Below, one piece after another: positions 4,282 through 36,692 of a DNA stretch of 64,000 bases (position 1 is its first letter; each line of letters begins with the position of its first letter). A model generated the notes under the pieces. That model was not told where the DNA came from. It ran no database searches and worked only from the letters and a program-made list of their open reading frames with translations. The position numbers and the translations under genes were made by a program. This DNA comes from Lachnoclostridium sp. (GTDB lineage: Bacteria > Bacteroidota > Bacteroidia > Bacteroidales > Muribaculaceae): the NCBI GenBank assembly GCA_023667185.1, contig JAMPAP010000002.1:150978-214977 (forward strand), given 5' to 3'.

Positions 4282-4293
4282 TCGAATGATCCT

Positions 4294-6564: not shown

Positions 6565-9500
6565 ATGAAGGACTTTTCATTGATTCTTAACACCGGAATC
6601 CAGTTTTACCAGCTGGACAACGAGGTTACGATTGACCTTAATGAGAGCGTGATGAAGGCATTACGCTACTATGTCTACCAGTTCCGTGACACTATCTACA
6701 TGGATCCCGTGTACTATTTCCCCATGAAAGACAAATTCCTGCGACGTAATGACCTGGTAACTAACGGATATCTTGACCCGAATACCAATGTCATGGCTCC
6801 TGAGGAAGTGATAAACAACCATGTCAACTGGCTTGAGGATGATACGCTACTCTCGGTCAACGGCCTTGATGTGACTATCGGCGATGAACGTCTTTCAGGT
6901 ATCGAACAGATTGAAAATCAGTGGCTCCCCATTCCTTTCTATGAGAAAGACCGCGACGGATCGTTCTCCTATCCGGTCAACTGGTGTCGTATCAAGCTGG
7001 TGCCGGTGAAGGAGAAGAGTACCGCTCACAAGAAGGTCTACAAGGCAGTGATGGCATTTGATACCAACGAAAATCTCCAGTATGCTGATCGCAGCCCCCA
7101 CTTCAATAATGGCCAGCCTTTCAAGGATTATGCCATGTGTGGTATCTCGCAGAAGGATCTCGACAATATGACTGACTCTGACCGCAAGCGCGTCAACTCA
7201 ATGATTGTCCCCCTGCGCGCCTACGAGTTTGTAGATACAAAGAAAAACCCCGAGCTCGACGGTTACCTCCGTACTATCCTCCACAGCAGTCCTGACGGAA
7301 AGCAGGAGGATGTGCGTGACCGCGTGAAATATCTCGCCTATTATACTTACCTGATAACTTACCTGCAGCTGAAGCATATCTTCCCTGACGTAAGATTGTA
7401 TAATGACGTCAATCAGGCTGTTATCAAGACGAATCTTGTGCTCGACGTAGGTAACTCCCGCACATTTGGCCTTATAGCCGAGGATCCGTTGAACGCATCA
7501 TTCTCCAAGGCTTCACCCATAGAGCTGCGTGACCTCTCCACCGGCCAGATTTACGACAAGCCCTTCGATATGCGTCTGTGCTTCCGCCGCGAGCTGTTCG
7601 GGCTCAGCACCAGCGACCGCCAGTTCCGCTGGCCGAGCTATGTGCGCCTCGGCGAAGAAGCTCTCCGCAATATCTACGATGGCGATCAGGATCTCGACAG
7701 TAACGAGGAGTTTGAGACAAACCATTCAAGCCCCAAGCGTTATCTCTGGGATACAGCACCTTACTGCGGCGAGTGGAAATTCGTTTCGGAGAAAGACCGC
7801 TACATCGGCCCGGCCATGAAAGTAAGCATCGAGGGACTTGATGAGCAGTTTGCTACCGATGGATCCTTCGTGGCTGACCCCATGAACTTCGGCGTCAAGA
7901 GCAGCTACTCCCGCTGCTCGCTGATGACCTTCTGCTTCCTGGAGATACTTCTTCAGGTAAGAATGCAGATCAACGGCGTGAAATTCCGTGAGAAAAACGG
8001 TAACGAAAGCCGCAAGCGTCAGATTTCCCGCGTGATACTTACATGCCCTACAGCGATGAGTCGCGAGGAACAGAAGACTCTCCGCAAGTGTATGGAGGAT
8101 GCGACCATCGTGCTCCGCCGCTTCTATAACGATTCGTATAACGAAGTCTATAATCCTGAGAATGATAAAGATAAAGTGGAAATCATCCCCTCGGTGAAAG
8201 ACCTTGCCAAGAATGCCGACAATTATGAAATGCGCCGCAACTGGATATACGACGAGGCTACCTGCTGCCAGATGGTGTATCTCTACTCCGAAATGCGCCG
8301 CTACTTAGGTAATGTCAATGAGTTTTTCGACCTCTACGGTATGCGTCGCAACGGCGAACCGCAGAAGTCGCTCACAGTGGCTTCAATCGACATAGGTGCC
8401 GGCACCACTGACATCATGATCTGCAACTACCGCAATGGAGGTGAGACGATTATACCTACGCCTCTTTTTTGGGAAACATTCCATATCGCCGGCGACGAGC
8501 TCGTGAAACGCGTGATTATCGACGTGCTTATCAACGATCCCCAGGAGAAGTTCCGCGGTGCATCCGGCCTGATTACCGATAAGCTCCGCTCCATAGGCTG
8601 CCCCGACATTCCTAATACCAAGGCTCACTTCTTCGGCGACACTCAGGCTATGGGAGTAAAAGAAAAACGTATGCGCAAGGAGTTTAACGTGCAGGTGCTC
8701 ATCCCTATAGCCAACTATCTTCTCGACCTTCTCCAGAAAAATGAGGAGGATCGCATCATCAAGTTTGACGACATCTTTACCACAACCCGTCCTTCAAAAA
8801 CACTGCTTGACTTCTTCGCCAACCAGATGGGCTTCCGCTTCGAGGAAATGCCTATCAAATATTCGCGCGAGTTTATGAACGACATCGTCAGCAAGGTATT
8901 TGAGCCGTCGATGCGCAAGTGGGCTGCAATATTCTACAGCTACAAGTGCGACATCGTGCTCATGGCCGGCCGCCCCTGCTCGCTCGAGCGCGTCCACAAG
9001 ATGCTGCTTCGCCTCTATTCCGTATCACCCAACCGCCTCATCTCGATGAACGACTACCGTGTAGGCTCATGGTATCCCGGCTCAAGCGACATCGGTCACT
9101 TCGGCGACAAGAAGTCGATGGTGGCTGTAGGTGCCTTGATATCTTATCTGGCTGAGACCGGCAAGCTGTCATATCTCCGCCTGAATACTGAAAACCTGAA
9201 AACCAAGATATTACCTACGAGTGACTTCATCGGCCTGCTCAACTCCAAGACGGGCTCACTCACTCCGCTGCTTACTCCGGAAATACGTCGTGCTCGCATG
9301 GAAATCTCAGGCTTCCCCATCCGCATCGGCACCAAGCAGATCAATATCGGCGGCTATCCTTCACGACTTATGTATGTACTTGACTTCAATGAGGATTTCA
9401 TCCGTCGTAAGGCTATTGAAAATCTTATCAACCAGCTCGGACTACCCATGTCGGCCAAAGAAACCGATATCTCACCTGACTATATTGTCAACGAGATGGA

Positions 9501-9717
9501 TACGCTGAAATTCCGTACCAAGCGCGCCACGCCGCTTACCTTCGCCTTCGAACGCGAGTTTAACACTGACAAGGAGCTCATCAAGATCGAAAGCGTGACT
9601 AACGCCGAGCGTGACGAGATCTCACCCAAAATGTTCAGCCTCAAGCTGCAAAGCTGGGATGAAGATGAAAACAACTGGCTCGATTCCGGTAAATTCATCA
9701 TGCAGATCAGCGAATGA
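6565..9717 (+). CDS. SrfB-like protein: large actin/Hsp70-fold (ASKHA) ATPase
   Basis: Phosphate-1-like VLDVGNSRTFG (about 7438), phosphate-2-like SIDIGAGTTDIM (about 8383) and an adenosine-like VLMAGRPCSL. It is 1050 aa and precedes a large P-loop protein, as in srfB-srfC. The N-terminus (LILNTGIQFYQLD) resembles my memory of SrfB. Confidence 0.6.
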   Translation: MKDFSLILNTGIQFYQLDNEVTIDLNESVMKALRYYVYQFRDTIYMDPVYYFPMKDKFLRRNDLVTNGYLDPNTNVMAPEEVINNHVNWLEDDTLLSVNGLDVTIGDERLSGIEQIENQWLPIPFYEKDRDGSFSYPVNWCRIKLVPVKEKSTAHKKVYKAVMAFDTNENLQYADRSPHFNNGQPFKDYAMCGISQKDLDNMTDSDRKRVNSMIVPLRAYEFVDTKKNPELDGYLRTILHSSPDGKQEDVRDRVKYLAYYTYLITYLQLKHIFPDVRLYNDVNQAVIKTNLVLDVGNSRTFGLIAEDPLNASFSKASPIELRDLSTGQIYDKPFDMRLCFRRELFGLSTSDRQFRWPSYVRLGEEALRNIYDGDQDLDSNEEFETNHSSPKRYLWDTAPYCGEWKFVSEKDRYIGPAMKVSIEGLDEQFATDGSFVADPMNFGVKSSYSRCSLMTFCFLEILLQVRMQINGVKFREKNGNESRKRQISRVILTCPTAMSREEQKTLRKCMEDATIVLRRFYNDSYNEVYNPENDKDKVEIIPSVKDLAKNADNYEMRRNWIYDEATCCQMVYLYSEMRRYLGNVNEFFDLYGMRRNGEPQKSLTVASIDIGAGTTDIMICNYRNGGETIIPTPLFWETFHIAGDELVKRVIIDVLINDPQEKFRGASGLITDKLRSIGCPDIPNTKAHFFGDTQAMGVKEKRMRKEFNVQVLIPIANYLLDLLQKNEEDRIIKFDDIFTTTRPSKTLLDFFANQMGFRFEEMPIKYSREFMNDIVSKVFEPSMRKWAAIFYSYKCDIVLMAGRPCSLERVHKMLLRLYSVSPNRLISMNDYRVGSWYPGSSDIGHFGDKKSMVAVGALISYLAETGKLSYLRLNTENLKTKILPTSDFIGLLNSKTGSLTPLLTPEIRRARMEISGFPIRIGTKQINIGGYPSRLMYVLDFNEDFIRRKAIENLINQLGLPMSAKETDISPDYIVNEMDTLKFRTKRATPLTFAFEREFNTDKELIKIESVTNAERDEISPKMFSLKLQSWDEDENNWLDSGKFIMQISE

Positions 9718-9759
9718 TTTTCAAGTGCACAAATTTACTAATTCTGACTACTTCTTAAA

Positions 9760-12700
9760 ATGGAAAACAAGATAATAGATGCTCAGATGAGCGCTAACGG
9801 AGCAGGTCTCGGCTGGGGACGCTCTTTTCTCAAAGGATCTGACCTGCGCGAGCTTCGCAGCGATCTAATCCGTAACCGTATCGACCTGCGTCGCATCCGC
9901 TATGCTGCCAGTGTCAACCCTGCAGCCGCTATCTTCGGCAAGAGCCAGGTGGGTAAGTCGTATATGGTTGACTGTCTGCTGACAAGCGAGACCAATCCGC
10001 TTACTGTATACGATGCCCAAGGTAATGCCCATGGGTTTATCGAGAAAATCAATCCTACCGGTAATGGTAAGGAGGCCACTTCGCTGATTTCACGCTTCAC
10101 TACCCAGAAGGTGTGGAAAGATGAGCGATTCCCGGTGAAGGCTATGATGCTTTCGCCCGTCGATGTAGTGCTCGTGCTCTGCGACACATATTATAATGAC
10201 GTAATGGGTCACAAAGTGCCTAACGACGAGGCGATAAATGCCGAGATCCAGCGCCTGCGCGAAACTTACGGCAACCGCCCCGCCGTGCAGACCATCATCG
10301 GCGAAGATGACATGATGGAGCTCCGCGAATATTTCACTCTCGGGCTGATGGAACAGCGCCCTGATTTTCAGGAAGCTCTTCTCCGCCTTAACTACTTCGA
10401 GACTCTCTCGGAGTTGATAGACGCTGTCCCCGTCGCTGCCTGGGCTGATGTGTTCTCCTTCCTTTGGAATCGTAATCCTATTATCACCGAGGTGTTTAAC
10501 AAGTTGATCAATACTCTCGAGCGCCTCGACTTCAGCCCCACAGTATATATAAAAATAGCTGCTGTGGACAAGTATCTCGGCACCATCCTCCATGTTGACC
10601 GTATCTATGAGCTATTCGGTATCACCGAGCTTGACGATGAGAAAAATGGCAAGACCATGATCGAGAAGGCTAAAGAACCTCTGATGGTGGCACTTACCGA
10701 GAATGGGAAGGAGGTAGAGAATATCGAGAAGAGTGTGTTCTGCGCCTTGGCCATGGAGGTCGACTTTACCATTGTCAATCCTGATGATGCATCATCGAGC
10801 GAAAAGCTGCTCAAGGAGAAGCCTTTCCTTCATGATCTTGACATCCTCGACTTCCCCGGTGCACGTTCACGCCAGAAAAACCCCGAGGCCGATATCACCA
10901 AGAAGGATGCCTCGCTTATGCTTATCCGCGGTAAGGTGGCATATCTGTTCAACAAGTATTCACAGCAATATCTTATTACCAACCTCCTTTTCTGCCACGA
11001 TGATACTCAGAACGAGGTTAATACGCTGCCTACCCTCCTTAAGAGCTGGGTAGAGAAAACCGTCGGTAAGACTCCCTCGGAGCGTGAAGTTTTCCTCCGC
11101 ACGGCCGAGGTGTCGCCCCTCTTCGTCATCGGCACAAAGTTTAATATCGAGCTCAAGCGCCGCGACGTCGACTCCAAGGGTAGCGCCGAGCAGCGCGAGC
11201 AGGAGAAGCGTAACCGCTGGATCAAGCGTTTCAGCATCCTGAGCAGTGTGATTTCGGCTTCGATCAAGAGCCCGTGGGAGCTCGAGTGGACCCCCGGCAA
11301 GGCGTTTAAGAATTTCTATATGCTGCGCTCGTTTGAATACTCTTGCCTCGATGGCCTTTATGAAGGCTATCAAGAGAAGGATGACAACGGCGACTGGGTG
11401 CTTTCGCGTAACGCCGATGGTACGCTCCGCGGTGAGCAGCGCGTCAGCGATGACTATAAGGACTTCTTCGCCGGACTGAAATCCACATTCCTTCAGAATG
11501 AATATGTGACCGAGCACTTCGAGGACGCCTCGAAGTCATGGGATGAGGCTGTTGCTCCCGGCAAGGATGGCTCGGCTTGGATTATCGAGAATCTTACCCG
11601 CTCGGGCCGCAACATGAAGGCTGCCCGCGAGCAGACCTTCTCACGCCTGTCGGACAGCGCCATGACCAAGCTGTGCTCAGCCTTGAAAAAGCATTTCCAT
11701 GATGATAACTCTGACTCCGAATTGCGCCGCGCCCTCGAAAGCGCCGGCCGTATCGAGCTGCTGTTTGATGCTCTATTCGGCAAGGACAAATATTTCTTCT
11801 CTGATTTCATCAACGCCTTGCTCGTGCATGAGGATGAGATCAATGACACTATCCTTTGCACAGTAAATTCCATCAAGGTGCTCGACGATACTGATATGTC
11901 CGTGCTCTTCGCTATCCGTAACCGCGCCAAGATCGTCGCTCCTTACACTGAGGATGAACATGGCAACCGCACACCCGTTGACCTTGAAGAGAACATGAAG
12001 GAAAACCGCCGCCGTATGCGTGAGACGTATCACTTCTCTACTGATGAGGAGCTTGACGAGTTCCTTGCCGGCATGAAGCTCACCATGGAGGATATTATCA
12101 ATCCGCCTATGGTGCGTAACCTTGCGCGTATCATCGTCGATGCCGTCGAGAAATATTGGATGGATACATATCTGTCGCTTGAAAACTTCAGCGAGTTTGT
12201 TGAGCGTGGTATGTCAGAGAAGGGCATCGAGACCCTCCTCAGCAATATGCGCGTGCTCTACAAAGATAAACTGCATATGTCAGAGCGCCTGACTGCCCGT
12301 CTTGCTCCCTACGTTACAGCCCGCGAGAACCTCGACGATATGGCCGAAATGCTCGCCGACATATGCGCCGAGATGCTCAACAAGTTTATCAACACCATAG
12401 GTACATCCTATTTTGAGGAAGAACTTTGGAAAGACGTTCACGCCACCGTGGATCATAATGGCTTTGATATCAAGGTGGATGCTGCTGAGTATGACTCCGA
12501 TATTGACTTCGATGGCGAGAAGACCCGCGAAGGCCTCAACGACGTGTTTGACGTGTTTGATAATGTTGATGTAATCCTCAATCAAGTGCCCGTGGATACC
12601 GAGAAACTTTCATATTTCTCCAATTATCATGCTTTCCGCGAGTGGACTGACATGATGAAGATTGCCTTCCTTGCCACTTGCGGTATCCCCAAATATGACG

Positions 12701-12813
12701 TGGTGATGAATAATGAGCTCCGCAACGTGCTTGTAAAATACATAGTCGATAACGATAATCTCAAGCCCATGCTTAAGCCTGAATATGGCCTGAGCGAGCT
12801 TGCTACTCTTTGA
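9760..12813 (+). CDS. SrfC-like large P-loop (dynamin-like?) GTPase
   Basis: Walker A FGKSQVGKSYMV (about 9934), DxxG-type LDILDFPGARS and a possible G4, GTKFN. It is 1017 aa with a long helical C-terminal part. Confidence 0.55.
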   Translation: MENKIIDAQMSANGAGLGWGRSFLKGSDLRELRSDLIRNRIDLRRIRYAASVNPAAAIFGKSQVGKSYMVDCLLTSETNPLTVYDAQGNAHGFIEKINPTGNGKEATSLISRFTTQKVWKDERFPVKAMMLSPVDVVLVLCDTYYNDVMGHKVPNDEAINAEIQRLRETYGNRPAVQTIIGEDDMMELREYFTLGLMEQRPDFQEALLRLNYFETLSELIDAVPVAAWADVFSFLWNRNPIITEVFNKLINTLERLDFSPTVYIKIAAVDKYLGTILHVDRIYELFGITELDDEKNGKTMIEKAKEPLMVALTENGKEVENIEKSVFCALAMEVDFTIVNPDDASSSEKLLKEKPFLHDLDILDFPGARSRQKNPEADITKKDASLMLIRGKVAYLFNKYSQQYLITNLLFCHDDTQNEVNTLPTLLKSWVEKTVGKTPSEREVFLRTAEVSPLFVIGTKFNIELKRRDVDSKGSAEQREQEKRNRWIKRFSILSSVISASIKSPWELEWTPGKAFKNFYMLRSFEYSCLDGLYEGYQEKDDNGDWVLSRNADGTLRGEQRVSDDYKDFFAGLKSTFLQNEYVTEHFEDASKSWDEAVAPGKDGSAWIIENLTRSGRNMKAAREQTFSRLSDSAMTKLCSALKKHFHDDNSDSELRRALESAGRIELLFDALFGKDKYFFSDFINALLVHEDEINDTILCTVNSIKVLDDTDMSVLFAIRNRAKIVAPYTEDEHGNRTPVDLEENMKENRRRMRETYHFSTDEELDEFLAGMKLTMEDIINPPMVRNLARIIVDAVEKYWMDTYLSLENFSEFVERGMSEKGIETLLSNMRVLYKDKLHMSERLTARLAPYVTARENLDDMAEMLADICAEMLNKFINTIGTSYFEEELWKDVHATVDHNGFDIKVDAAEYDSDIDFDGEKTREGLNDVFDVFDNVDVILNQVPVDTEKLSYFSNYHAFREWTDMMKIAFLATCGIPKYDVVMNNELRNVLVKYIVDNDNLKPMLKPEYGLSELATL

Positions 12814-12840
12814 GATTAACCTAAAGCATTATCCATCAAT

Positions 12841-15438
12841 ATGCAACGAATATTAGGACAAAGTGATTATAACTCTTTCACCCACCATTTCAATGCCAAC
12901 GAACCGGTGGTGAAAAATCCGCGCATCAGCTCTTTTATGGCTACGCGTCTGCCCGGCCTTGACGATGCTTCACGTAAGGCACTCGCCAATCCGTATTTCA
13001 GCGGTATGCCGGGTAAGGAGCAGGTGATGTGGCAGACTGACGCCTTCGAAAGCGAGCCCGTAAGACTTAGTGACCTTTCCGGTGCTGAGCGCGAGAAATA
13101 TGAGCGTATTCTCGACAAGACTATGCGCTCGATAGCCCGCTCCGTGGAGCAGACTGACGATGAAATGAAGCGTGTGATGAAAGAGGCTGTCACATACCAT
13201 TCGCCCGATACCGTATACTGTGCTGATGATCGCGTGGTGATCACCGAGTGGGGTATGCATCCCAAGTCGCGTAGCGATTTCAGCAGCCTGCCACTGGGCG
13301 TGCAGCTCGATGAAACCGGTGAGCCCACCGGCAATTCTTCAGCTTCTGAGACTCCTGAGACTCCTGGAAATTCTGGAAATTCCGGGAATAATGAGAATTA
13401 TGGGAATACAGAGAACAATGAGAATACCGGGAACAATGAACCGGAATCTCCCACACCTCCCACACCTCCCACTCCACCCACACCTCCTGTTCCACCCGTT
13501 CCACCCACAACTCCACCTACACCCCCCGTTACTCCCACACCCCCGGTGAAGCCCTCCGGCGATTCCGGCAACTCCGGCGGCAAGAATAAGAAGGGGTGCC
13601 TCAAGAAGCTGTTGAAGTGGCTGCTCATAGCTCTTGGTGTGCTGTTGCTGCTGTGGTTGCTGTCAAGTCTGCTGAAGTCGTGTGACGGTTCCTCAACCCC
13701 CGGCTCGGAGGATATTGTGGCACTACCACCAGAAATTGACCCCGAGGAGGATATAGTGGAGAGTCCTGACTCGATGACTCGTATCGTGGCCAATCGCCTG
13801 ATCTTGCTTATCTCGGATGGTGGCACGGTCAACGAGTTTGTCGATGCGTTTTATGCCAAGTACCCTGACAAGAAGAAATACACCTTCGCTAATCCTGATA
13901 CGTTGATCCCGCGCGTAGTGCTTGTGCTGCCCGCTGATGAGCGTGAGGGGATGATAGAGCGGTTGCCGTCAGAGTTCCCTGACTGGGATCTCGTGGTGCT
14001 TCCCGAAACTCTTTTCGGCGGCTCGATGATACCTGACGATCCGGCATTCGCTGACCCTGAGAAGAGATGGTATTTCGACATGACCTCGACATTTGACGCC
14101 TGGGACACCACCCGTGGCGACAAGAAAATCAAGATAGCTATCATCGACGACGGCTTTGACCTGAATCATCCCGAAATCAAGGGTAAGGTGGTGGATCAAT
14201 ACAATGCCGTCACCCACACCCGTGATGTCTTCCCGCAGAAGGATGGCCACGGTATGCACGTAGCAGGCACGGCTGCCGGTATCGCCGGTAACCACGAGGG
14301 TATCTCCGGTATCGCCCCTGACTGCGAACTTATGCTCATCCAGGTAGGCGACCGTAATGGGGTGATGTCAACCTCGGCCGTGATTGATGCCGTGCTTTAT
14401 GCCATCAGCAATGGCGCCGATGTGGTAAATATGTCGCTCGGTATGGAATTTAACCCTATGCTGCAGCTCGCTCCCCCTGAAATGCAGGAGGAAATCATCC
14501 GCAACCAGTTTCTCGAGGAGGAAGGGATGTGGAACAAGATTTTCGAAATGGCCGATAAGAAAAACGTAACGTTTGTGCTTGCCGGTGGTAACCAGAACCT
14601 TATTATCGGCCTTGACCCGATGCAGCGCTCGTCACGCACCATCAAGGTGTCGGCCGTAACGCCCACCAAGGAGAAGGCTGACTTCTCCAACTATGGTAAA
14701 TACTCCACCCTCTCGGCTCCCGGTGTAAATATCTACAACGCCTTCCCCGGCGGCAAGTATATCTCGTATCAGGGTACGTCGATGGCCTCGCCCATCGTGG
14801 CCGGTGGTGTGGGATTGCTGAAGAGTGTTGAGCCGTCGCTCACAACGGCACAGATTGCCAACATCCTGCGCGAAACGGGTATAGAATCGCCCAGCGACGT
14901 CGGCCCGATAGTCAACTTCGCCCGCGCACTTGACCTCCTTAAAGAGAAGGGACCTGATGCCGGAACCGGTACCGGGGACACTGACTGCGACAAGATTCGC
15001 GACCGCTATCTGGAGCTCACTGAGGAGATAGAGCGCATCCGACGCGAGCATCCCGAGTGTGTCGATGCTATTGACACTCTCGAGATCCCGGTAGGTGTGG
15101 CGCTCACTGACTTGCGTGGTCTTTACCAGAGTACCACCAAGATTGTTAATGTGTCCGGCGAGGATGTTGTGATCTTCCTGTCGTTTGATGGAACGCCCAC
15201 CGGCGGTGTGATGCTCGTAGAGCCTTCGGGCGCTAAGTTTACTGCCTCAACATCAGTGTCAGTCTCCGGCGACAAGATCCTTATTCACCAGAATGGACCG
15301 GCCGAAGGCACGAGTGGCGGGTATCTGCCTTACGACTTTACCCTCATTCCTGACCGCGACCGTAAGGCGCAGGGTACAGCTGTAAATCAATCCGATCCTC
15401 GCAACAGGGTTCGCTTCCAGCTTATCCGCATAAAGTAA
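12841..15438 (+). CDS. Membrane-anchored subtilisin-like (S8) serine protease. Domain order: cytoplasmic N-domain, N/G/E- and Pro/Thr-rich linker, single TM, periplasmic S8 domain, C-terminal beta domain
   Basis: Catalytic triad motifs IAIIDDGFD (about 14146), DGHGMHVAGTAAG (about 14248) and GTSMASPIVAGG (about 14779). The TM segment WLLIALGVLLLLWLLSSLL is preceded by KNKKGCLKKLLK (positive-inside rule). Confidence 0.85.
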   Translation: MQRILGQSDYNSFTHHFNANEPVVKNPRISSFMATRLPGLDDASRKALANPYFSGMPGKEQVMWQTDAFESEPVRLSDLSGAEREKYERILDKTMRSIARSVEQTDDEMKRVMKEAVTYHSPDTVYCADDRVVITEWGMHPKSRSDFSSLPLGVQLDETGEPTGNSSASETPETPGNSGNSGNNENYGNTENNENTGNNEPESPTPPTPPTPPTPPVPPVPPTTPPTPPVTPTPPVKPSGDSGNSGGKNKKGCLKKLLKWLLIALGVLLLLWLLSSLLKSCDGSSTPGSEDIVALPPEIDPEEDIVESPDSMTRIVANRLILLISDGGTVNEFVDAFYAKYPDKKKYTFANPDTLIPRVVLVLPADEREGMIERLPSEFPDWDLVVLPETLFGGSMIPDDPAFADPEKRWYFDMTSTFDAWDTTRGDKKIKIAIIDDGFDLNHPEIKGKVVDQYNAVTHTRDVFPQKDGHGMHVAGTAAGIAGNHEGISGIAPDCELMLIQVGDRNGVMSTSAVIDAVLYAISNGADVVNMSLGMEFNPMLQLAPPEMQEEIIRNQFLEEEGMWNKIFEMADKKNVTFVLAGGNQNLIIGLDPMQRSSRTIKVSAVTPTKEKADFSNYGKYSTLSAPGVNIYNAFPGGKYISYQGTSMASPIVAGGVGLLKSVEPSLTTAQIANILRETGIESPSDVGPIVNFARALDLLKEKGPDAGTGTGDTDCDKIRDRYLELTEEIERIRREHPECVDAIDTLEIPVGVALTDLRGLYQSTTKIVNVSGEDVVIFLSFDGTPTGGVMLVEPSGAKFTASTSVSVSGDKILIHQNGPAEGTSGGYLPYDFTLIPDRDRKAQGTAVNQSDPRNRVRFQLIRIK
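13331..13580 (+). repeat. Low-complexity coding repeats (GNS/NEN units, then PTPPTPPTPPVPP units)
   Basis: Reiterated short units gagactcct, ggaaattct and cccacacct seen directly. The overlapping alternate-frame ORFs are artefacts of this tract. Confidence 0.85.
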
Positions 15439-15482
15439 TCACCACATATATTATATATAGTAACTGAAAATTTAAACCAAAT

Positions 15483-16361: not shown

Positions 16362-16412
16362 AAATAAAATATTATTGATTATAATTGAAAATACAAATTA
16401 AAAATATAAGCT

Positions 16413-17954
16413 ATGCCATTCGATCATACAAAACTATCAATTTATACAGTGCCTCAGCTCATTGAGTTTATGAAGTCAGGTGAAGTAACTTTTGAAGAAC
16501 TTCAGCAACTCGGTCTTCCATATTTCAAGCAGGATGAGATACGCAAATTCCTCGCTGAAAAGGATATATGGGAAGCCGCCAAAATGACTCAGGAAGGTAT
16601 CAACAACTATCTTGCCACTTATCCCAACGGCTTCTTCGTGGATGAGGCCGGTGCAGCAATGACTGCTGCAAAAGAAGAAGGAGTTTGGCAGTGGGCTTGC
16701 GACGAAGATAATGTTGCAGCCTATAAGCGCTACCTCAGCAAATATCCTACGGGCAAGTATGCTATTAAAGCCGAAATGAGAATTGAAGAACTTGAGGAGA
16801 TAGAGAAAAATCTGAAGGAGGAGATTTTCAATGATATGCGCGAGAACTTCTGGAACTATTCTTATATGAAGATGCGCCAGCTCTATAATCCCCAGCCTCT
16901 TACTCCAGAGCAGAAAGACTTCCTCGCTTCGCAGGATGATGCTTATTCACGATTTGTAGCTAACGGGTTGAAACTGACTCATCAGGATCTGATCGATAAT
17001 GGTGTAGTTCCTGAGGGCGTCACCCAGTCAGAAGTTTCTTCACCTGAGTTTACGATGCCTGCTACTAAAATTGAAGAACTCGGTATGTTCCCCAAGGATC
17101 GCACTGACATATTCTTCCTCGGTGTGCCTCGTTCGGGTAAGTCTTCAGTTTTATCGGGTGTGATTTATCAGCTTTGGCGCGATGGTTTTGCCGGCTATGA
17201 GCCTCAACTTGTAAATGGTGTAGACCCTTGTATGGCCTATTATCAGGGTCTTATCCGTGCGGTTGCCACCAAGAAGCCGCCGGTAGGTACGGCTACTGAT
17301 ACAGTGTCGTTCATGAAAATAGACCTTGTGCATGGTAAGCGTCGCAACAAGCTGACTATTGTCGAGATGGCAGGTGAAGCTTTTAAAAGAGCTGCCGAGC
17401 GTATTGCCAAAGGTAATGGAAATCAGGAAGAAGTGTGGAAGGAACTTGGCGCCGAACAGTGCTTAAGAAGCAAGAATCAGAAGATGCTCTTCTTTGTGCT
17501 TGACTATAGTGCTGTCAAGGGTATAAATGAGGCATGCTCCGCATTTGATCAGCTCGAGATCCTTGAATCAGCTCTCCGAACCTTGAGTACCGATGGCCCT
17601 GACCCCCAAAATCCTCGCAAGGGTTGTACAATGAGCCGTGTTGAAACTGTAGCCGTGCTTGTGACAAAAAGCGACCTTATGCAGCAGTCAACAGTGCAAG
17701 GACGTCTTGCCGAGGCAAGAGCCTATATGGAAGATAACTTCAAGAACTTCATGCGTGAACTGATGGATATGTCACGTGAATTTGGTTGCAACAGGGTTAA
17801 CGATTACCGTCCTTACTTCCTTACTTTCAGCCTCGGAAATTTCTACGTAGGAAATACTGTCGTATTTAATCCTGATGATTCCAAACGAATTATTGACTTT
17901 ATCCGTACGGCTACTCCATCAGAATCGATTGATCGTTTCCGCTTCTTTAACTAA
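16413..17954 (+). CDS. TRAFAC-type GTPase-like protein with a helical N-terminal region (two YxxxYPxG repeats)
   Basis: G1 FFLGVPRSGKSSVL (about 17120), G3-like LTIVEMAGEAF and G4 VLVTKSDL. It is a paralog of 28332..29456. Confidence 0.65.
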   Translation: MPFDHTKLSIYTVPQLIEFMKSGEVTFEELQQLGLPYFKQDEIRKFLAEKDIWEAAKMTQEGINNYLATYPNGFFVDEAGAAMTAAKEEGVWQWACDEDNVAAYKRYLSKYPTGKYAIKAEMRIEELEEIEKNLKEEIFNDMRENFWNYSYMKMRQLYNPQPLTPEQKDFLASQDDAYSRFVANGLKLTHQDLIDNGVVPEGVTQSEVSSPEFTMPATKIEELGMFPKDRTDIFFLGVPRSGKSSVLSGVIYQLWRDGFAGYEPQLVNGVDPCMAYYQGLIRAVATKKPPVGTATDTVSFMKIDLVHGKRRNKLTIVEMAGEAFKRAAERIAKGNGNQEEVWKELGAEQCLRSKNQKMLFFVLDYSAVKGINEACSAFDQLEILESALRTLSTDGPDPQNPRKGCTMSRVETVAVLVTKSDLMQQSTVQGRLAEARAYMEDNFKNFMRELMDMSREFGCNRVNDYRPYFLTFSLGNFYVGNTVVFNPDDSKRIIDFIRTATPSESIDRFRFFN

Positions 17955-17972
17955 CAAAACACGATTTTACTA

Positions 17973-24010: not shown

Positions 24011-25215
24011 TACGCAAGTTATTGATAATGCTGTTGGCCGCTATGCCCGCCGTTATGGCCTTGGCTGACGCTGCAGATGATGTGACTCTGTTCACCCTTA
24101 CCAACGATACACGGAACGTCGTTGTCAAGGATGCGACGCTGGAGGACTCTGTCGCCGGTCAGGTAGTCGACAAGGTGATAAAGAGATTCCTTGAAGAGCC
24201 ATGGGCTGTATCAGAGTATAACACAGCCTCACTGGATGAATACAAAACCTTGACAAAGACCGCCAACGATAGCATCAGGAAGCTGAAAGACCAACTAAAA
24301 AAAGAAGAAAAAGCTCTGAAGGCTCTGAATAATTCACTAGAAAAGGCTAAAGAGGAAGCCTCTAAAAAGGAAAAGAACCGCATTGATAGCCTGACAACGG
24401 TCAGAAACAAAGTCAAGGCTCAGCTTGATTCTATAAACAAGCAAAACAATAAACTTGAATCCTTGACAATAGTATATCGCAATAAGGTCGCTCATCTCGA
24501 CTCCCTAACCAATGCTCTAAATTCGCAGATTGACGAAATGGACACCGAACTCTCGCGCGGCTCTGCCATCAAGAAAGACTTTGATGACAAGAAAAATGAA
24601 GCCGCCAACGTTGTGAACTCCATCCGCAAAAATCTTGATACGATGCGCGCTACCGATCTGACGAAAGTTGACAAGAAGCCTATTGAGCAGTCAAAAAAGC
24701 TCCTTGCCGACAACAGCTTGCTTATACAAAACTATAACCCTGTCCTACTCCAGGAAGCCAAGAAGTATATCCGAGACATGGAGCAGATCCTCGAGGTCAA
24801 GAATGCTTGTGACGAATCACTCCTCCTCATGAGCCAGAAGTATGCCCCTGCAGCTGTAAATGCCCAAATCAGCAAACTTCAGGCAATACGCAGAGATGCC
24901 GATATGCTCTCATCCGCTCAGGAAAATTATGTGGTAGTTGTCCTTAATCTCCTTAAAGTGGAAGGTGAAACAGTCAATAAATTCAAAGAAACAGTCGAGG
25001 GGCTGAAAAAGCATATTGCGCTTGATGGGACCCCGGGTCAAGAGAATACGATAAAAAAAGAGCTTAATGGAGTGGTTATTAATCCTGAATACACTTATTA
25101 TATACAGATGCGCAAGAAAATCCTGGATGATTTCTTTGTGAATAAAACCAAAGGAGATCTCCTTGATTTCGAGCGATATGATGATTATTTAAATAAAACT
25201 CTAAACGATCTATAA
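24007..25215 (+). CDS. Secreted coiled-coil protein (402 aa), same length as the preceding gene
   Basis: Signal peptide LLIMLLAAMPAVMALADA. It is K/E/L/N-rich with coiled-coil character, and an ATGA start/stop overlap links it to the upstream gene. Confidence 0.65.
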   Translation: MIRKLLIMLLAAMPAVMALADAADDVTLFTLTNDTRNVVVKDATLEDSVAGQVVDKVIKRFLEEPWAVSEYNTASLDEYKTLTKTANDSIRKLKDQLKKEEKALKALNNSLEKAKEEASKKEKNRIDSLTTVRNKVKAQLDSINKQNNKLESLTIVYRNKVAHLDSLTNALNSQIDEMDTELSRGSAIKKDFDDKKNEAANVVNSIRKNLDTMRATDLTKVDKKPIEQSKKLLADNSLLIQNYNPVLLQEAKKYIRDMEQILEVKNACDESLLLMSQKYAPAAVNAQISKLQAIRRDADMLSSAQENYVVVVLNLLKVEGETVNKFKETVEGLKKHIALDGTPGQENTIKKELNGVVINPEYTYYIQMRKKILDDFFVNKTKGDLLDFERYDDYLNKTLNDL

Positions 25216-25216
25216 C

Positions 25217-26443
25217 ATGAGATTACTATCAGAAGAGTCGTTCAGCCGCATTGAGCCGCTGATTGCCGATGATTATAAACGCACCCGCAGCCGCCTGGCG
25301 CTGTTGTTGTCCCCGCAAGACTGCGAAGTGTTTGCCCAGGTGGACCTGCTGCCCAACCGCGGCAAGTGGGTAGCCGATGTCCCCGGCCAGCTGATGCCCT
25401 ATTCCGAGGCTTCGGCCGCCGAGCGCGAGCAGATCGCAGCCTATCTCGAGGATAAGAAGCGCGCCATAGCCGCTGCCATCGGCGACAAGGTCCCCTACGT
25501 CAACGACCTTTTCCGTATCCCTGATGAAAACCAGATCTTCTGGTTCAAGGACAGCACCGGCAATGTCCGCGTAGTGCTGTCGCAGTGGGGATTCCGCCGC
25601 ATCAATGCTCCCGGCGACGTCGACGTGATAGAATTTCTCATCTCCCAGCCCCGCACAATGTCAATATGCGAGGTTGTGGCCAAGGGCGTATACTCTGACG
25701 GACAGCCTTACGCCTGCCAGCCCATCACGCTCTCGATTTTCGGCAATACATCTGAGGTAAAAACCGCTACTGATGGTACTTACTTCATAGGCAAAGTGCC
25801 CATGAACAAGGAATTCTCAATCACGGCCGATGGACAGATATACGACTTCGTGACAAGTGCTGACCGCGAAAGCTACGACTTCATTGTCAATCGCTACACC
25901 GGGTGGAGTGTCCGCGTCGTTGGTCAGAAAGGTGAGTCTGTAGCCAACTATCCGGTGAAGATCAACGGCCGCGACTGCATGACCGATGCTGACGGCATCA
26001 TCGCTGCCGATAATGTCATGATGACCGGCGATGACCGCCTGCAGGTAGAAGCTGAATATGGCGAACCGATGGAATACACCCTCTCTCCAGTCAGAGAAAA
26101 CAACGACTTCGAATACCGCGTTACTCTCCCTGTAAAAGAGGAAGTGAAGCCCCCGCTGCCCCCTGTGCCCCCCGAACCGCCGGTTAAGAAACCCGTCAGA
26201 GTGCATCTGCTCGACCTTGACGGCTCGCCCCTTGACTTCGTTGATGTATTCATTGACCAGCCCAACGGCACCACTGTCACCGCCACAACCGATGCCGACG
26301 GCTGGGCCACCTTCCCACGCGACACCTTTGTTGACAAGAAGAAGTCAAAGCTCCGCTTCAAGCTCACCAAGGAGTATCAGGAGCGTCGCCGCCAGATGAA
26401 AGAACAGCAAAAACAGCAACAAACTTCACAGAATCATGGCTAA
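25217..26443 (+). CDS. Cytoplasmic protein: N-domain shared with the S8 protease, CarboxypepD_reg-like beta-sandwich repeats, Pro-rich stretch, basic tail
   Basis: SAAEREQIAAYLEDKKRAIAAAI...VRVVLSQWGF resembles SGAEREKYERILDKTMRSIARSV...RVVITEWGM in 12841..15438. Repeats of the type TDADG.. occur. Pro-rich stretch: PPLPPVPPEPP. Confidence 0.65.
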   Translation: MRLLSEESFSRIEPLIADDYKRTRSRLALLLSPQDCEVFAQVDLLPNRGKWVADVPGQLMPYSEASAAEREQIAAYLEDKKRAIAAAIGDKVPYVNDLFRIPDENQIFWFKDSTGNVRVVLSQWGFRRINAPGDVDVIEFLISQPRTMSICEVVAKGVYSDGQPYACQPITLSIFGNTSEVKTATDGTYFIGKVPMNKEFSITADGQIYDFVTSADRESYDFIVNRYTGWSVRVVGQKGESVANYPVKINGRDCMTDADGIIAADNVMMTGDDRLQVEAEYGEPMEYTLSPVRENNDFEYRVTLPVKEEVKPPLPPVPPEPPVKKPVRVHLLDLDGSPLDFVDVFIDQPNGTTVTATTDADGWATFPRDTFVDKKKSKLRFKLTKEYQERRRQMKEQQKQQQTSQNHG

Positions 26444-28325
26444 ATCTCAGGATATCAACTATCAGAAAAAATTCAAGTTTGACCCCCGGCAGGACGAATA
26501 CGAATTCCAGCTCAAGAAGAAACGTAACTGGTGGTGGCTGCTGTTGCTGCTGTTACCCCTTCTGCTGCTGATCCGCTGCGAGCGCGACATGACCATAACC
26601 GTGGTCGACGATGATACCGACGAGCCTATCGAAGGAGCCCAGCTCAACTTAAGGTACACTTCCCATTATCTGCTCAAAGACTGGAAATTCCTCCTCAACG
26701 AGCCGGTGGCGCGCGAGGCTATTACTGATGTCGACGGAGAAGCACGTTTCGAGAAGCTCCCCTGCAGCGTCTACTCCTACATATTCTATTGCCTGAGCCG
26801 CGCTGCTGTCACGGCCTCCGACCCTTGCCATGAACCGGCCTCGATAATGCCGCTGGTTCACTACACATGGAATGCCGAAATCCGCCTCAAAAAGCTCCTC
26901 ACTGACGTCACCGTCACGGTGGTCGATGATGAGACCTCTGATCCAATCCCGGGGGCTGTGGTCACAGTAACCACCGGCGAAGTCACTGATTCCGTAACCA
27001 CAGATGCCGCCGGGCGTGTCAAGCTCGAAAAAGTGCCTCACTGTGGTATTATCGATGTGCTGAAAGGCTCGGCCTTCGGCTACGCTGATACCTTGCGGCG
27101 CAACCTGCCCGTGGCGCTGCTCGAAGACCCTGACAGCGCTTATCTGCGACTCCGTCCCGTCAAGGAGCGCTTCACATTCTTCGTCAAAGATGTGGAGACT
27201 CGCGAGCCGATCCCCGGTGCAACAGCTGTGGTGACCCTCGACGACCCCCGATCCGGCTATCGCGGCACTCATGAATACAAGACCAACGTCGATGGCCGCG
27301 GCATGGGATTCTACGACGAAGGGTTTATCCTCTCGCGCCTCAGCATAAAGGCCTCAAAAGTGCATTACAACGATTCCACCCTGAAGGGTGACTACACTAT
27401 CGGTGAATTTATAAAACTGCCTGACTCGCTTCGCACCGTATGGCTGCGCCCGATGCCATTTAACACTGAATTCCAGTGTATCGACTCCCTCTCGCGCAAG
27501 CCCATACCGGGAGTGGAAAATGTGATCACTGTCACTGACCCTGCCGGAAATACCGAGACCTATACCGAGATATCCAACCGCAATGGCAAATTCCCCGTCC
27601 ATGCCAAGGAAGGCTCCAAGATACATATCGACTCGCGTCTCCCCGGCGAGTACAAGGACAAGGCTACTGACATCCCCTCCTACGACGGAAAAGAGGAGAT
27701 CATCGAAATGATGCCTGACGTCACTCCGCTTGACGTAGACATGGTGATGGTGATTGACAACACCGGCTCAATGTCAGGAACCATAGGTATGGTAAAGCGC
27801 AATGCCTCGAATTTCTATTCTGACCTCAACGAGGAATGTGTGAAACATAAACTGTATATCAACAAGTTCCGCCTGAAGGTGATCTCGTACGGCGACCTGT
27901 CAGAAAAGCCGTTCAATGTATCACCGCTATATGAATTACCTGACCAGACTGCTGCTTACAAAGCATTCGTAAGCTCAATTATAGCCGCCGGAGGTGGCGA
28001 TGAGCCTGAGGATGGATTGCAGGCCGTGCGCGACGCCATGTCGACATCCTGGGTAAGCGGGCCGCAGCTCAAGCGCCATGTGATCGTCGTGTACACTGAT
28101 GCTCCGACCCATAGTATGTCATCCGGCGACTTCGACGCCATTAAATCCAAATGGATGTCAATGGATCCCGATTCGCGGCGCATGATCCTCTTTGCCCCGG
28201 CTAAAGATTCATGGAACACGCTGGCCACCTGGCCTCAGGTAAGTCACGAGACCGGTTCGCTCTCGTCAGTGCTCGCCGGAACCGGTTACGCCAACGTCCT
28301 CGAAAATATCTGTAAATCACTCTAA
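26436..28325 (+). CDS. N-terminally anchored periplasmic protein: four CarboxypepD_reg-like repeats plus a C-terminal von Willebrand factor A (vWA) domain
   Basis: TM segment KKKRNWWWLLLLLLPLLLLIRC. Repeats are ITVVDDDTDEPIEGAQ, VTVVDDETSDPIPGAV, FFVKDVETREPIPGAT and FQCIDSLSRKPIPGVE. The MIDAS-like motif is VMVIDNTGSMSG (about 27750), followed later by GGGDEPEDG and VVYTDAP. Confidence 0.8.
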   Translation: MAKSQDINYQKKFKFDPRQDEYEFQLKKKRNWWWLLLLLLPLLLLIRCERDMTITVVDDDTDEPIEGAQLNLRYTSHYLLKDWKFLLNEPVAREAITDVDGEARFEKLPCSVYSYIFYCLSRAAVTASDPCHEPASIMPLVHYTWNAEIRLKKLLTDVTVTVVDDETSDPIPGAVVTVTTGEVTDSVTTDAAGRVKLEKVPHCGIIDVLKGSAFGYADTLRRNLPVALLEDPDSAYLRLRPVKERFTFFVKDVETREPIPGATAVVTLDDPRSGYRGTHEYKTNVDGRGMGFYDEGFILSRLSIKASKVHYNDSTLKGDYTIGEFIKLPDSLRTVWLRPMPFNTEFQCIDSLSRKPIPGVENVITVTDPAGNTETYTEISNRNGKFPVHAKEGSKIHIDSRLPGEYKDKATDIPSYDGKEEIIEMMPDVTPLDVDMVMVIDNTGSMSGTIGMVKRNASNFYSDLNEECVKHKLYINKFRLKVISYGDLSEKPFNVSPLYELPDQTAAYKAFVSSIIAAGGGDEPEDGLQAVRDAMSTSWVSGPQLKRHVIVVYTDAPTHSMSSGDFDAIKSKWMSMDPDSRRMILFAPAKDSWNTLATWPQVSHETGSLSSVLAGTGYANVLENICKSL

Positions 28326-28331
28326 ATCGAT

Positions 28332-29456
28332 ATGCCTAAAACCAATATGTCACCCGTCAAGGAGCAGCTTCTCCGCCACATGAAGGAAGCCCCGCAATAC
28401 TACCATCCGGCACTGTTGCGCGACATCCTTGACGGCCGACTTGGGGATGCTGACGACTACGCCCTCATGCCCGGCCCGATGAAGGAGTTCATCGAGTCAG
28501 GGCAGAGGCTTACGTGGGAGGAGATCCTTGGGGCCGGAGTGCTTCCCCGGCCGCTTCCCCGCGAGGTGGTGACCGCTGATGAGGATATGCGCCTACCCGT
28601 CTACTCCGTTAAGCAGTATGAGGGCGGCATCGTAGCTCCGCATCGCACTGACGTGTTTATCCTCGGCGTGGCCGGTACAGGAAAATCCTCTCTTGCCTGT
28701 AGCCTTATCCGCCAGCTCGTGGATGTGTGTGAGTATGAGTATCAGCCTATGAAGTCCTCGCCCGATGATGCCAAGACTGCTGATTATTATAATGCTGTCA
28801 TGGACATAACTTTGCGGTTCAACAAGCCCGTGGCTCCTTCGCTCAACGATAACCTACTTTTCACCCAGCTTCGCGACACCCATTCTCGCCGCCGCCTTAC
28901 CATTATTGACGGTGACAGCAATGATATGTCAGATCTGGCACGGATCAACACCCCTGACGGAGTGATATTCAAGAAATACAATATCTACCGTATCATGGGC
29001 AACCGCAACTCCAAGATCCTGCTACTGCTCTTCAACTATCGTCAGATCAAGACCTCCGGCCATCGCACCATGTTCAACCAGTCAATGCTCATCGAGCGCT
29101 TCCTCAATGCCATGACATCTGACGGATCACCCGATAATCCCGAAAAGGATAGCTCGTTCAGCCGATTGAAAGGACTGGTATTTGTGTTTACAAAGTGCGA
29201 CAATCAGGATCCTGACGCGCTGAATGTCATCAACCGGTTTCTTGAAGAGCATCTCAAGACTGTGATGATGCGGCTCGACATCATCAACCGCCGTTTCGGC
29301 ATCAACAAGGAGAATGGCTACCGCCCGTATATCCTCCCCGTTACCCTCGGGCAGTTTACCATCGGAAACACGTTCATCTACAACCCGGAAACATCCATAA
29401 ACCTTGCCAAACTTATCACCTCGATTACACCTACGCAGTGGCCCTGGCAATGTTGA
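28332..29456 (+). CDS. TRAFAC-type GTPase-like protein, paralog of 16413..17954, with a degenerate G3
   Basis: G1 FILGVAGTGKSSLA (about 28666) and G4 FVFTKCDN. The G3 position reads LTIIDGDSND, with no DxxG glycine. The C-terminus GYRPYILPVTLGQFTIGNTFIYNPETS matches DYRPYFLTFSLGNFYVGNTVVFNPDDS in the paralog. Confidence 0.65.
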   Translation: MPKTNMSPVKEQLLRHMKEAPQYYHPALLRDILDGRLGDADDYALMPGPMKEFIESGQRLTWEEILGAGVLPRPLPREVVTADEDMRLPVYSVKQYEGGIVAPHRTDVFILGVAGTGKSSLACSLIRQLVDVCEYEYQPMKSSPDDAKTADYYNAVMDITLRFNKPVAPSLNDNLLFTQLRDTHSRRRLTIIDGDSNDMSDLARINTPDGVIFKKYNIYRIMGNRNSKILLLLFNYRQIKTSGHRTMFNQSMLIERFLNAMTSDGSPDNPEKDSSFSRLKGLVFVFTKCDNQDPDALNVINRFLEEHLKTVMMRLDIINRRFGINKENGYRPYILPVTLGQFTIGNTFIYNPETSINLAKLITSITPTQWPWQC

Positions 29457-36179: not shown

Positions 36180-36200
36180 ACTATTCACAAAGTGTAAATC

Positions 36201-36692
36201 ATGATAAAAGATAATTTGAATCTCGCTACAGCCTTCGCATTTATGGCATGCGACGGCGATATCTCGCCCGATGAGGTGAAGTTGATAAAGCAGATGAATG
36301 CTGACGGCATCATCCCGTGTGACGATGTCGACGATAAGCTCGAGCAGCTACTCGGGCAGCTCAACGCCCGCGGTCACGGCTTTATGAAAGACTATTTCCA
36401 GGCCGTCACTGACGCTGACCTTGACGCCGACGCGGCTCTCGCGCTACTCAAGATTGCCGTCGCCACCATCTATGCCGACGAAATCGTGGAATACTCCGAG
36501 GTGAAGTTTTTCCGAGCCGTGCGCTCGCATATCCTCTCAATGACCGATGAGCAGATCCTCGAGGCTATCCCCGAGGTTGAGGACTTTTGGCTGGAGTCTG
36601 ACGTCAAGTCGGCCGCTCCGGGCTACCTCGACCAGCAGTATATGGAAGCTGTCGAGCTACCGCAGTTTGACATCGCATCATTGAAGAAGTAA
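36201..36692 (+). CDS. TerB-like (tellurite-resistance TerB / DjlA N-domain type) protein
   Basis: Two copies of the TerB-type motif: FMACDGDISPDEVKLIKQM and IYADEIVEYSEVKFFRAV. All-helical, 163 aa. Confidence 0.65.
   Translation: MIKDNLNLATAFAFMACDGDISPDEVKLIKQMNADGIIPCDDVDDKLEQLLGQLNARGHGFMKDYFQAVTDADLDADAALALLKIAVATIYADEIVEYSEVKFFRAVRSHILSMTDEQILEAIPEVEDFWLESDVKSAAPGYLDQQYMEAVELPQFDIASLKK

Follow-up and report, generated by a model that had tools for sequence, protein, structure and literature searches.

A homologous N-terminal domain in an S8 protease and in a split gene pair of a Bacteroidota srfBC operon

The stretch of 64,000 nucleotides analyzed here in full (the window), from contig JAMPAP010000002.1 of Lachnoclostridium sp. 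(Muribaculaceae by GTDB lineage), encodes homologues of SrfB and SrfC, an 865-amino-acid (aa) protein with an S8 protease domain and, further downstream, two overlapping genes at 25217-28325 for proteins of 408 and 629 aa. The N-terminal modules of the 408-aa and S8 proteins are confirmed as a genuine homologous domain. Judged by profile comparison, this module is the N-terminal domain of SrfA (SrfA-N), a kinase-like scaffold without catalytic motifs. The operon thus encodes two SrfA-like arms that span the membrane and differ in their periplasmic heads, one of the arms being divided between two genes. Taken as a whole, we favor the explanation that two paralogous SrfA-type single-pass inner-membrane arms are each docked to SrfB-SrfC by SrfA-N, and consider it reasonably probable. 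SrfABC systems are widespread and carry annotations such as "virulence factor" or "toxin". To our knowledge, they are without an established mechanism.

Homology of the two N-terminal modules

A sequence-only reading of the window had noticed by eye that the N-termini of the 408-aa and S8 proteins resemble each other. The similarity is real, and the peptides quoted for it are all present where they were placed. Pairwise, BLASTP aligned the two proteins only weakly, at 27% identity over 67 aa (E 0.003), and phmmer within the operon returned them as reciprocal best non-self matches. Word-indexed homologue searches produced a single match with the 408-type module and no match with the S8 N-region. 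Exhaustive scanning with HMMER, using the N-region of the 408-aa protein as query, recovered 67 proteins. Four multi-stretch matches among them were set aside as spurious, and all others match at their extreme N-terminus over about 140 residues. Relatives of the S8 type were gathered with a full-length S8 profile (44 orthologues), and all 44 full-length orthologues collected have the same N-region, linker and single transmembrane (TM) helix. A hidden Markov model (HMM) built from 61 relatives of the 408 type, with the window's own protein left out, matched residues 59-144 of the S8 protein with a score of 19.6 bits. In this search of the 25 proteins of the operon the E-value was 9e-7, and that of the next match was 0.29. 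Residues 1-165 of the S8 protein scored 23.1 bits on this HMM versus 4.7 bits for the best of 2000 shuffles.

Comparison of profiles with hhalign gave a probability of 89.7% for the 408-type family against the S8 N-region alone, and of 98.7% (E 3.6e-16) for family against family, over 135 columns that correspond to the whole module; a second family-to-family run gave 98.5%. This comparison had been set beforehand as the test of the proposed similarity, and its outcome of 98.5-98.7% is not background. The shared region had been placed at about residues 75-150 of the S8 protein. These residues do fall within the module, but the module is larger and comprises residues 1-150 of the S8 protein and 1-140 of the 408-aa protein. 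Scanning the full window in six frames located it in the 408-aa and S8 genes only. The two modules share about 19% identity, and HMM scores across the families range from 9 to 20 bits.

Structure predictions with AlphaFold2 (AF2) were made from non-overlapping alignments, the S8 alignment being without the Runella sequence. The 408-type module was modeled with a pLDDT of 96.4 and a pTM of 0.90, and the S8-type module, from an S8-only multiple sequence alignment, with a pLDDT of 91.6. Both models have the same order of elements, b-b-a-a-b-b-a(long)-a-b-b-b. Invariant or near-invariant positions of the 408-type family are L31, F39, W51, P102 and W124-G125.

Identity of the module as SrfA-N

The only family model matched recurrently was NCBIfam SrfA_fam (NF040486), hit by 5 of 38 members far under its cut-off. 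The 408-aa protein scored 17.0-19.6 bits on this model, and the S8 protein had no match at E <= 0.01. With 17-20 bits against a cut-off of 150, neither protein belongs to that curated subfamily. The window proteins would work like SrfA, but they depart from the curated SrfA family in two respects, the NF040486 score and the lipocalin-like SrfA-C head: Pfam reported no lipocalin family in either head, and found Peptidase_S8 in one and CarboxypepD_reg with vWA in the other.

A separate SrfA-N profile was made from four sequences, srfA of a Salmonella plasmid and the genes directly 5' of srfB on Mesorhizobium, Cereibacter and Gluconobacter plasmids. Against it, hhalign gave 98.5% (E 3.2e-15) for the S8 type and 97.6% (E 3.2e-12) for the 408 type. 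Salmonella SrfA itself scored 30.9 bits on the S8-type profile and 17.3 bits on the 408-type HMM; on the S8-type profile, the 408-aa protein reached 8.7 bits versus the 30.9 bits of Salmonella SrfA. Together with the adjoining srfB and srfC genes, the matches to the SrfA-N profile identify the S8 protein as the SrfA of this cluster, equipped with a protease head. The 408-aa and 629-aa proteins form a second, more divergent SrfA-like arm.

In Foldseek searches, both AF2 models matched protein kinases and pseudokinases only (IRE1, CDPK1, PknB, KSR1, Pan3 and EssB/YukC), and the matches were weak (E >= 0.016, TMq <= 0.45). The module is short, at about 140 aa. VAIK, HRD and DFG motifs were not found in it, and the conserved columns in the alignments of both families contain no Lys or Asp. 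A recent preprint (10.64898/2026.09.18.752743) describes SrfA as consisting of SrfA-N, a disordered region, a TM helix and a periplasmic lipocalin-like domain, with SrfA-N being kinase-like and devoid of catalytic motifs. An AlphaFold3 (AF3) model in the same preprint presents SrfA as a platform that binds SrfB and then SrfC.

The kinase-like fold opens an alternative in which the N-modules serve for dimerization, as in IRE1 or in EssB/YukC, the membrane pseudokinase of the type VII secretion system (T7SS). IRE1 kinase domains and EssB/YukC act as dimers within single-pass membrane proteins. In the cytoplasm, each arm would pair with the other arm or with a copy of itself. The protease would thereby be brought beside the vWA/Ig-like head, and SrfB and SrfC would act elsewhere. 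The presence of IRE1 and EssB/YukC among the Foldseek matches and the co-occurrence of the two arms across phyla are in line with this idea. The same structural matches are weak, however, and classical srfABC operons, such as that of Salmonella, have one SrfA. We therefore regard pure dimerization as quite improbable. EssB/YukC does resemble the arms in being a single-pass protein with a catalytically dead kinase-like domain in the cytoplasm and an extracytoplasmic domain, but it belongs to the T7SS of Firmicutes, shows no detectable sequence relationship and is a weak structural match. It serves as an analogy only. Docking of SrfA-N to SrfB-SrfC is the reading that we continue to prefer.

Architecture of the two arms

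The interval 25217-28325 on the + strand consists of two open reading frames (ORFs), 25217..26443 for the 408-aa protein and 26436..28325 for the 629-aa protein. They share 8 nucleotides (nt), ATGGCTAA, in an arrangement that is typical of translational coupling and makes such coupling likely here. The features of this second arm (arm 2) are as follows.

25217..25636, + strand: SrfA-N-like module, predicted cytoplasmic, residues 1-140 of the 408-aa protein (HMMER relatives, alignment, AF2, hhalign 97.6%)
25655..26131, + strand: two beta-rich repeats, residues about 147-305, with T(A)TDG and TDADG motifs (reading of the sequence)
26147..26194, + strand: Pro-rich linker KPPLPPVPPEPPVKKP, residues 311-326 of the 408-aa protein
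26195..26416, + strand: MG4/CarboxypepD_reg-like beta-sandwich, residues 327-400 of the 408-aa protein (Pfam MG4 E 2.2e-10, CarboxypepD_reg E 1.7e-9)
26333..26440, + strand: basic C-terminal tail DKKKSKLRFKLTKEYQERRRQMKEQQKQQQTSQNHG of the 408-aa protein, the split site relative to fused homologues
26436..26443, + strand: 8-nt overlap ATGGCTAA of the 408-aa stop and the 629-aa start
26466..26528, + strand: conserved juxtamembrane motif KKFKFDPRQDEYEFQLKKKRN, predicted cytoplasmic, residues 11-31 of the 629-aa protein
26529..26579, + strand: single TM helix WWWLLLLLLPLLLLIRC, residues 32-48 of the 629-aa protein (hydropathy)
26580..27737, + strand: CarboxypepD_reg-like repeats of the 629-aa protein, predicted periplasmic (Pfam CarboxypepD_reg E 3.3e-18)
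27738..28325, + strand: vWA head, predicted periplasmic, Pfam match at residues 435-560, with a DxTxS motif like that of a metal-ion-dependent adhesion site (MIDAS)

The S8 arm (arm 1) and the two genes directly 5' of it, srfB and srfC, are laid out as follows.

6565..9717, + strand: SrfB homologue, no TM helix or signal peptide (Pfam SrfB E 4e-160)
9760..12813, + strand: SrfC homologue (Virul_Fac, P-loop), no TM helix or signal peptide (Pfam E 2e-99)
12841..13290, + strand: SrfA-N domain, residues 1-150 of the S8 protein (hhalign, AF2)
13450..13617, + strand: Pro-rich linker (residues 204-238) and basic segment GKNKKGCLKKLLK (residues 247-259)
13618..13683, + strand: TM helix WLLIALGVLLLLWLLSSLLKSC, residues 260-281
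14122..14880, + strand: Peptidase_S8 domain, predicted periplasmic (Pfam PF00082 E 9.9e-48)

The heads named in the sequence-only reading were recovered by Pfam, as CarboxypepD_reg repeats and vWA in the 629-aa protein and as Peptidase_S8 in the 865-aa protein (12841-15438), there at residues 428-680. D436, H470 and S647 of the S8 protein are invariant across the 44 orthologues and are read as the catalytic triad of this head. The vWA domain of the 629-aa protein scored 37.3 bits on VWA_4 (cut-off 27) and 24.7 bits on VWA (cut-off 23.8). Its MIDAS-like DxTxS stands at residues 441-445 within VIDNTGSMS (residues 439-447) and is a predicted metal site. Hydropathy revealed no TM segment and no signal peptide in SrfB, SrfC and the 408-aa protein, and one TM helix each in the S8 and 629-aa proteins, with a cluster of Lys and Arg just before it. 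The charge distribution at the helix of the 629-aa protein suggests an N-in, C-out orientation. SrfA-N and the repeats of the 408-aa protein are accordingly predicted to lie in the cytoplasm, and the S8 and vWA heads in the periplasm.

Both arms follow the same plan of a cytoplasmic module, a spacer, a basic segment, one Leu/Trp-rich TM helix and a periplasmic head. The mirror-like architecture that had been proposed holds for this overall plan, but it is inexact. The 408-aa protein has three beta-sandwich-like repeats on the predicted cytoplasmic side that the S8 arm is without. A Pro-rich stretch and a basic segment are indeed found in both arms, but about 165 residues of beta-rich repeats come first after the module of the 408-aa protein. 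The beta-rich repeats at residues about 147-305 align to equivalent repeats of fused homologues and are read as a predicted cytoplasmic spacer. Similarly, the Leu/Trp helix is present in both arms, but the Cys that was said to end it is frequent rather than invariant in homologues. A Cys lies right after the helix in both arms (IRC-ERD at 26577-26579, KSC-DGS at 13681-13683) and in most homologues, and is replaced in Runella (IRL-EKD) and at locus L005 (IRF-EHD). It could be a disulfide site, a lipidation site or functionless.

Split and fused forms of the second arm

The division of arm 2 over two genes is borne out by colinear fused homologues of about 1100 aa, on which the 408-aa protein aligns to residues 1-470 and residues 9-446 of the 629-aa protein align to residues about 466-926, with E-values down to 1e-62. 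By this alignment, arm 2 is split in its basic linker, just 5' of the membrane helix, and the pair is a true two-gene split of one architecture. A check of homologous clusters for fused and split versions found both forms. Among 62 family representatives (clusters at 50% identity) examined by hydropathy, about 14 are fused, with TM helix and periplasmic part in one chain, and about 45 show no TM segment. Most of the representatives without a TM segment terminate as the 408-aa protein does, with the final beta-sandwich followed by a basic tail, and a few are fragments. Split versions form the majority. In the fused homologues of about 1100 aa, a different head that contains Cys takes the place of vWA, and other fused members (P0049, P0052 and P0064) end in a trypsin-like protease. 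The arm 2 of the Runella plasmid is fused (L003:35903-39208).

At split loci, the gene for the TM helix and head always lies 3' of the N-module gene, with two such genes at L005 and one each at L009 and L010. All partner genes examined and all fused proteins have the juxtamembrane motif F-K/T-F/Y..Q/K-D/E-Y.x.L/M-KK.R.WWWLLL...C-E/N-K/R-D/E. The frame of the TM-head gene relative to the N-module gene is +1 in the window, 0 at L005, +1 at L010 and +2 at L009. The variation in spacing and relative frame among loci indicates that the split is a stable gene arrangement, neither an artefact nor the product of a conserved recoding site. Recoding by frameshift or readthrough to join the 408-aa and 629-aa proteins was considered and rejected, as frame and spacing vary by locus and no conserved signal was apparent.

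A simpler account would be a chance or compositional resemblance of the N-termini, with the two genes being a frameshift or assembly artefact. The modest pairwise BLASTP E-value and the gene overlap could have been taken in this sense. The account is nevertheless already refuted, and its probability is negligible. The profile-profile match and the clean shuffle control speak against chance. The predominance of the split across clusters, with its varied spacing and frames, speaks against an artefact, as does a stop codon 12 codons 5' of the ATG of the 629-aa gene and in its frame, as read from the sequence. In addition, an independent Logan contig carries a pair of identical lengths, 408 and 629 aa.

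Two further observations concern the range of forms. At L005 (9513-12527), a single N-module gene precedes two alternative genes for a TM helix and head. Their juxtamembrane and TM segments are nearly identical; one encodes a vWA head (367 aa), the other repeats with a Cys-containing head (632 aa). With its repeats and vWA, the 629-aa protein of the window resembles a combination of both. A complete 169-aa ORF on a 685-nt contig (P0001/L001) matches the first ~90 residues of the module at about 61% identity and then is wholly divergent; truncation, rearrangement or chimeric assembly would account for it.

Recurrence of the two-arm arrangement

Homologous clusters checked for the shared module all keep both modules. 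Both arms occur with SrfB and SrfC in 6 of 6 Bacteroidota-type loci reaching far enough, counting SrfC alone where the DNA ends (L010 and L011). The order SrfB-SrfC-S8 arm...second arm is found in the window, on the Runella sp. SP2 plasmid pSP2_1, and at L007 and L008. L010 and L011, where the retrieved DNA starts within srfC, show SrfC-S8 arm...second arm; they are two contigs with identical protein and gene order, and their compact cluster has no Hsp70, kinase or TIR genes. A 492-aa Runella protein, considered as a match of the window's 484-aa protein, proved not to match it.

Plasmids of Mesorhizobium and Cereibacter carry a related arrangement, [SrfA-N-TM-trypsin-like protease][SrfA-N-TM-other head][SrfB][SrfC]. 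The proteins annotated there as "serine protease" consist of SrfA-N, a Pro-rich linker, a TM helix and a trypsin-like protease, and the SrfA-N genes preceding srfBC lie at 5355-8335 in Mesorhizobium (L015) and at 3675-6821 in Cereibacter (L016). The classical Salmonella srfABC operon has a single SrfA. Taken together, the Bacteroidota-type and alphaproteobacterial loci indicate that the combination of one SrfB-SrfC pair with two arms, one of which bears a protease, is a recurrent design. The SrfA-like proteins of Mesorhizobium and Cereibacter have Cys-rich heads, unlike the published lipocalin-like SrfA-C, and Cereibacter has a secreted vWA protein downstream.

Proposed mechanism and alternatives

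In both arms, SrfA-N of about 140-150 aa, on the predicted cytoplasmic side, leads through a spacer and a basic juxtamembrane stretch to a single Leu/Trp-rich TM helix and on to the predicted periplasmic head. This architecture is established by the analysis, along with the homology of the modules, the relation of split to fused forms and the conserved co-occurrence with SrfB/SrfC. Arm 1 is one polypeptide with a Pro-rich spacer and an S8 protease head with conserved predicted catalytic residues. Arm 2 is produced from two probably translationally coupled genes, with the 408-aa protein providing SrfA-N, three beta-sandwich-like repeats and the basic tail, and the 629-aa protein providing the juxtamembrane motif, the TM helix, periplasmic CarboxypepD_reg-like repeats and the vWA head. 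The two halves would join non-covalently, probably via the conserved F-x-F...EY-x-F-x-L juxtamembrane motif. Through SrfA-N, each arm would dock to the cytoplasmic NTPase complex of SrfB and SrfC, whose genes lie just upstream, and one NTPase machine would thereby be equipped with two periplasmic modules, a protease and a vWA/Ig-like binder. We put docking of both SrfA-N modules to the SrfB-SrfC complex at slightly better than even chances. The idea of docking gains a concrete basis from the identity of the module as SrfA-N, the srfB and srfC genes upstream, the AF3 model of the preprint, and the alphaproteobacterial operons with two arms and a single SrfB-SrfC pair. The assembly might further act as an envelope-spanning sensor or effector of a conflict system or defense island, which is speculative and which we hold to be rather doubtful. 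Such a role is proposed on account of the TIR, kinase-AAA, Hsp70-like and TerB genes downstream and of BREX beside the Runella copy.

Several points weigh against this explanation. In the window, 10 kb and eight genes separate arm 2 from srfBC. The two N-modules are very divergent, and their partners may therefore differ. Cytoplasmic CarboxypepD_reg/MG4-like repeats are unusual, and the topology is based on hydropathy and charge only. The AF3 model of SrfA, SrfB and SrfC is itself only a prediction, and the defense role is purely contextual. Finally, each arm is followed by its own paralogous P-loop NTPase, so that separate partners are possible.

16413..17954, + strand: P-loop NTPase of 513 aa, after the S8 arm (BLASTP paralogue of the 374-aa protein)
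28332..29456, + strand: P-loop NTPase of 374 aa, directly after the 408/629 arm

These two NTPases are paralogues with 27% identity over 382 aa (BLASTP E 7e-40), and they bear on the main rival, in which each arm has its own partner. The S8 arm, nearer to canonical SrfA, would engage SrfB-SrfC, and the 408-type module would engage a different protein such as the 374-aa NTPase, with the 513-aa paralogue serving arm 1. The position of one paralogue after each arm fits such a division, and so does the much higher score of Salmonella SrfA than of the 408-aa protein on the S8-type profile. Each subfamily is also well conserved internally, and at L005 arm 2 is syntenic with its downstream genes. However, no NTPase gene follows arm 2 on the Runella plasmid, which has a single homologue of the two NTPases (L003:29668-30873), or at L010. 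The compact alphaproteobacterial operons likewise combine two SrfA-N arms with SrfB and SrfC as the only large cytoplasmic proteins. We consider separate partners unlikely and retain the docking of both arms to SrfB-SrfC as the favored explanation. A 1037-aa protein together with the 513-aa protein was also considered as a second SrfB/SrfC pair and was rejected, as BLASTP showed no similarity.

Neighboring genes

In order, the same-strand gene run, which extends from 6565 to about 38374, encodes SrfB, SrfC/Virul_Fac, the 865-aa S8 protein, several membrane, lipoprotein and secreted coiled-coil proteins and the 408/629 pair, followed on the 3' side by a P-loop protein, an Hsp70-like protein, a kinase-AAA fusion, TerB and a TIR-Sel1 protein. 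Two tandem 402-aa proteins (22802-24010 and 24007-25215, with a mutual overlap of 4 nt) are encoded just 5' of the 408-aa gene. Both have a signal peptide and coiled-coil-like sequence, and their position is held by similar-sized proteins at L005, L007 and L008. They are candidate periplasmic partners or substrates.

The genes at 31921-37744 encode the Hsp70-like protein (833 aa), a fusion of protein kinase and AAA ATPase (IetA-like by PADLOC), TerB, and a TIR-Sel1 protein that has a TM segment. L005 shows synteny for the Hsp70-like and kinase-AAA genes, and its retrieved DNA ends within the latter. None of the four genes occurs in the compact L010 cluster or in Runella. PADLOC found no system-level match in the window, returning generic subtilase, kinase and AAA (IetA-like) models only. 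On the Runella plasmid (L003), a complete BREX type 1 system (brxB, brxC, pglZ, brxL and others) at 3613-18724 lies immediately upstream of the SrfB-SrfC-S8 cluster, which suggests a defense-island setting.

On the 5' side of srfB, both the window (2290-6300) and L007 (1-3317) carry genes for a Big_5 lipoprotein-like protein and a TPR/His_kinase (LytS-type) membrane protein. This pair may regulate the operon, or the common order may just mean that the two genomes are close relatives.

Relation to known systems and implications

The closest known system is SrfA of SrfABC (Salmonella, Xenorhabdus, Haemophilus; NF040486), which has the same succession of SrfA-N, linker, one TM helix and periplasmic domain, with srfB and srfC beside it. 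It differs in its lipocalin-like SrfA-C head with an FLNGxW motif and four Cys, whereas the heads here are an S8 protease or Ig-like repeats with vWA. The gene order is also A-B-C there and B-C-A here, and the operon described here has two arms, one of them split and with beta-sandwich repeats on the predicted cytoplasmic side. A broader likeness exists to the GTPase-centric and MoxR-vWA conflict systems (Kaur, Burroughs, Iyer and Aravind, eLife 2020), in which a constant NTPase core is combined with variable membrane-proximal components and in which paralogous P-loop NTPases, vWA, peptidases, Hsp70, kinase and TIR modules also occur. Unlike in those systems, no GAP1 or MoxR was detected here, and the sole DO-GTPase2 match, in the 513-aa protein, is under the cut-off (17.8 bits, cut-off 27). 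SrfB and SrfC are not mentioned in that study (Kaur et al. eLife 2020). Our literature search found no description of SrfA-N on protease or vWA heads, of split SrfA-like genes or of the two-arm pattern.

The finding that SrfA-N recurs on quite different periplasmic heads, and that a protease arm and a second arm accompany SrfB and SrfC (or at least SrfC) in two phyla, recasts SrfA as a modular transmembrane adaptor. It also corrects annotation, as the "S8 family peptidase" and the "hypothetical" or "vWA" proteins of these Bacteroidota operons are SrfA paralogues. SrfBC is thereby placed within a large operon resembling a conflict island and, on the Runella plasmid, next to BREX. Hypotheses are raised on the surface that SrfA-N offers to SrfB and SrfC, on the target of the protease arm, which might be the vWA/Ig-like arm or the envelope, and on the assembly of the split halves. 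More generally, SrfA-N might be a cytoplasmic plug that links interchangeable periplasmic heads to one SrfB-SrfC NTPase engine, by gene fusion or by non-covalent assembly of the products of split genes. The heads found on SrfA-N comprise S8 protease, trypsin-like protease, vWA, Ig-like repeats, Cys-rich beta domains and lipocalin. Although this generalization is tentative and falls short of being probable, SrfABC would then be the minimal form of a widespread two-armed (protease and binder) envelope-spanning sensing or defense machine in Bacteroidota and Proteobacteria, rather than a secreted toxin.

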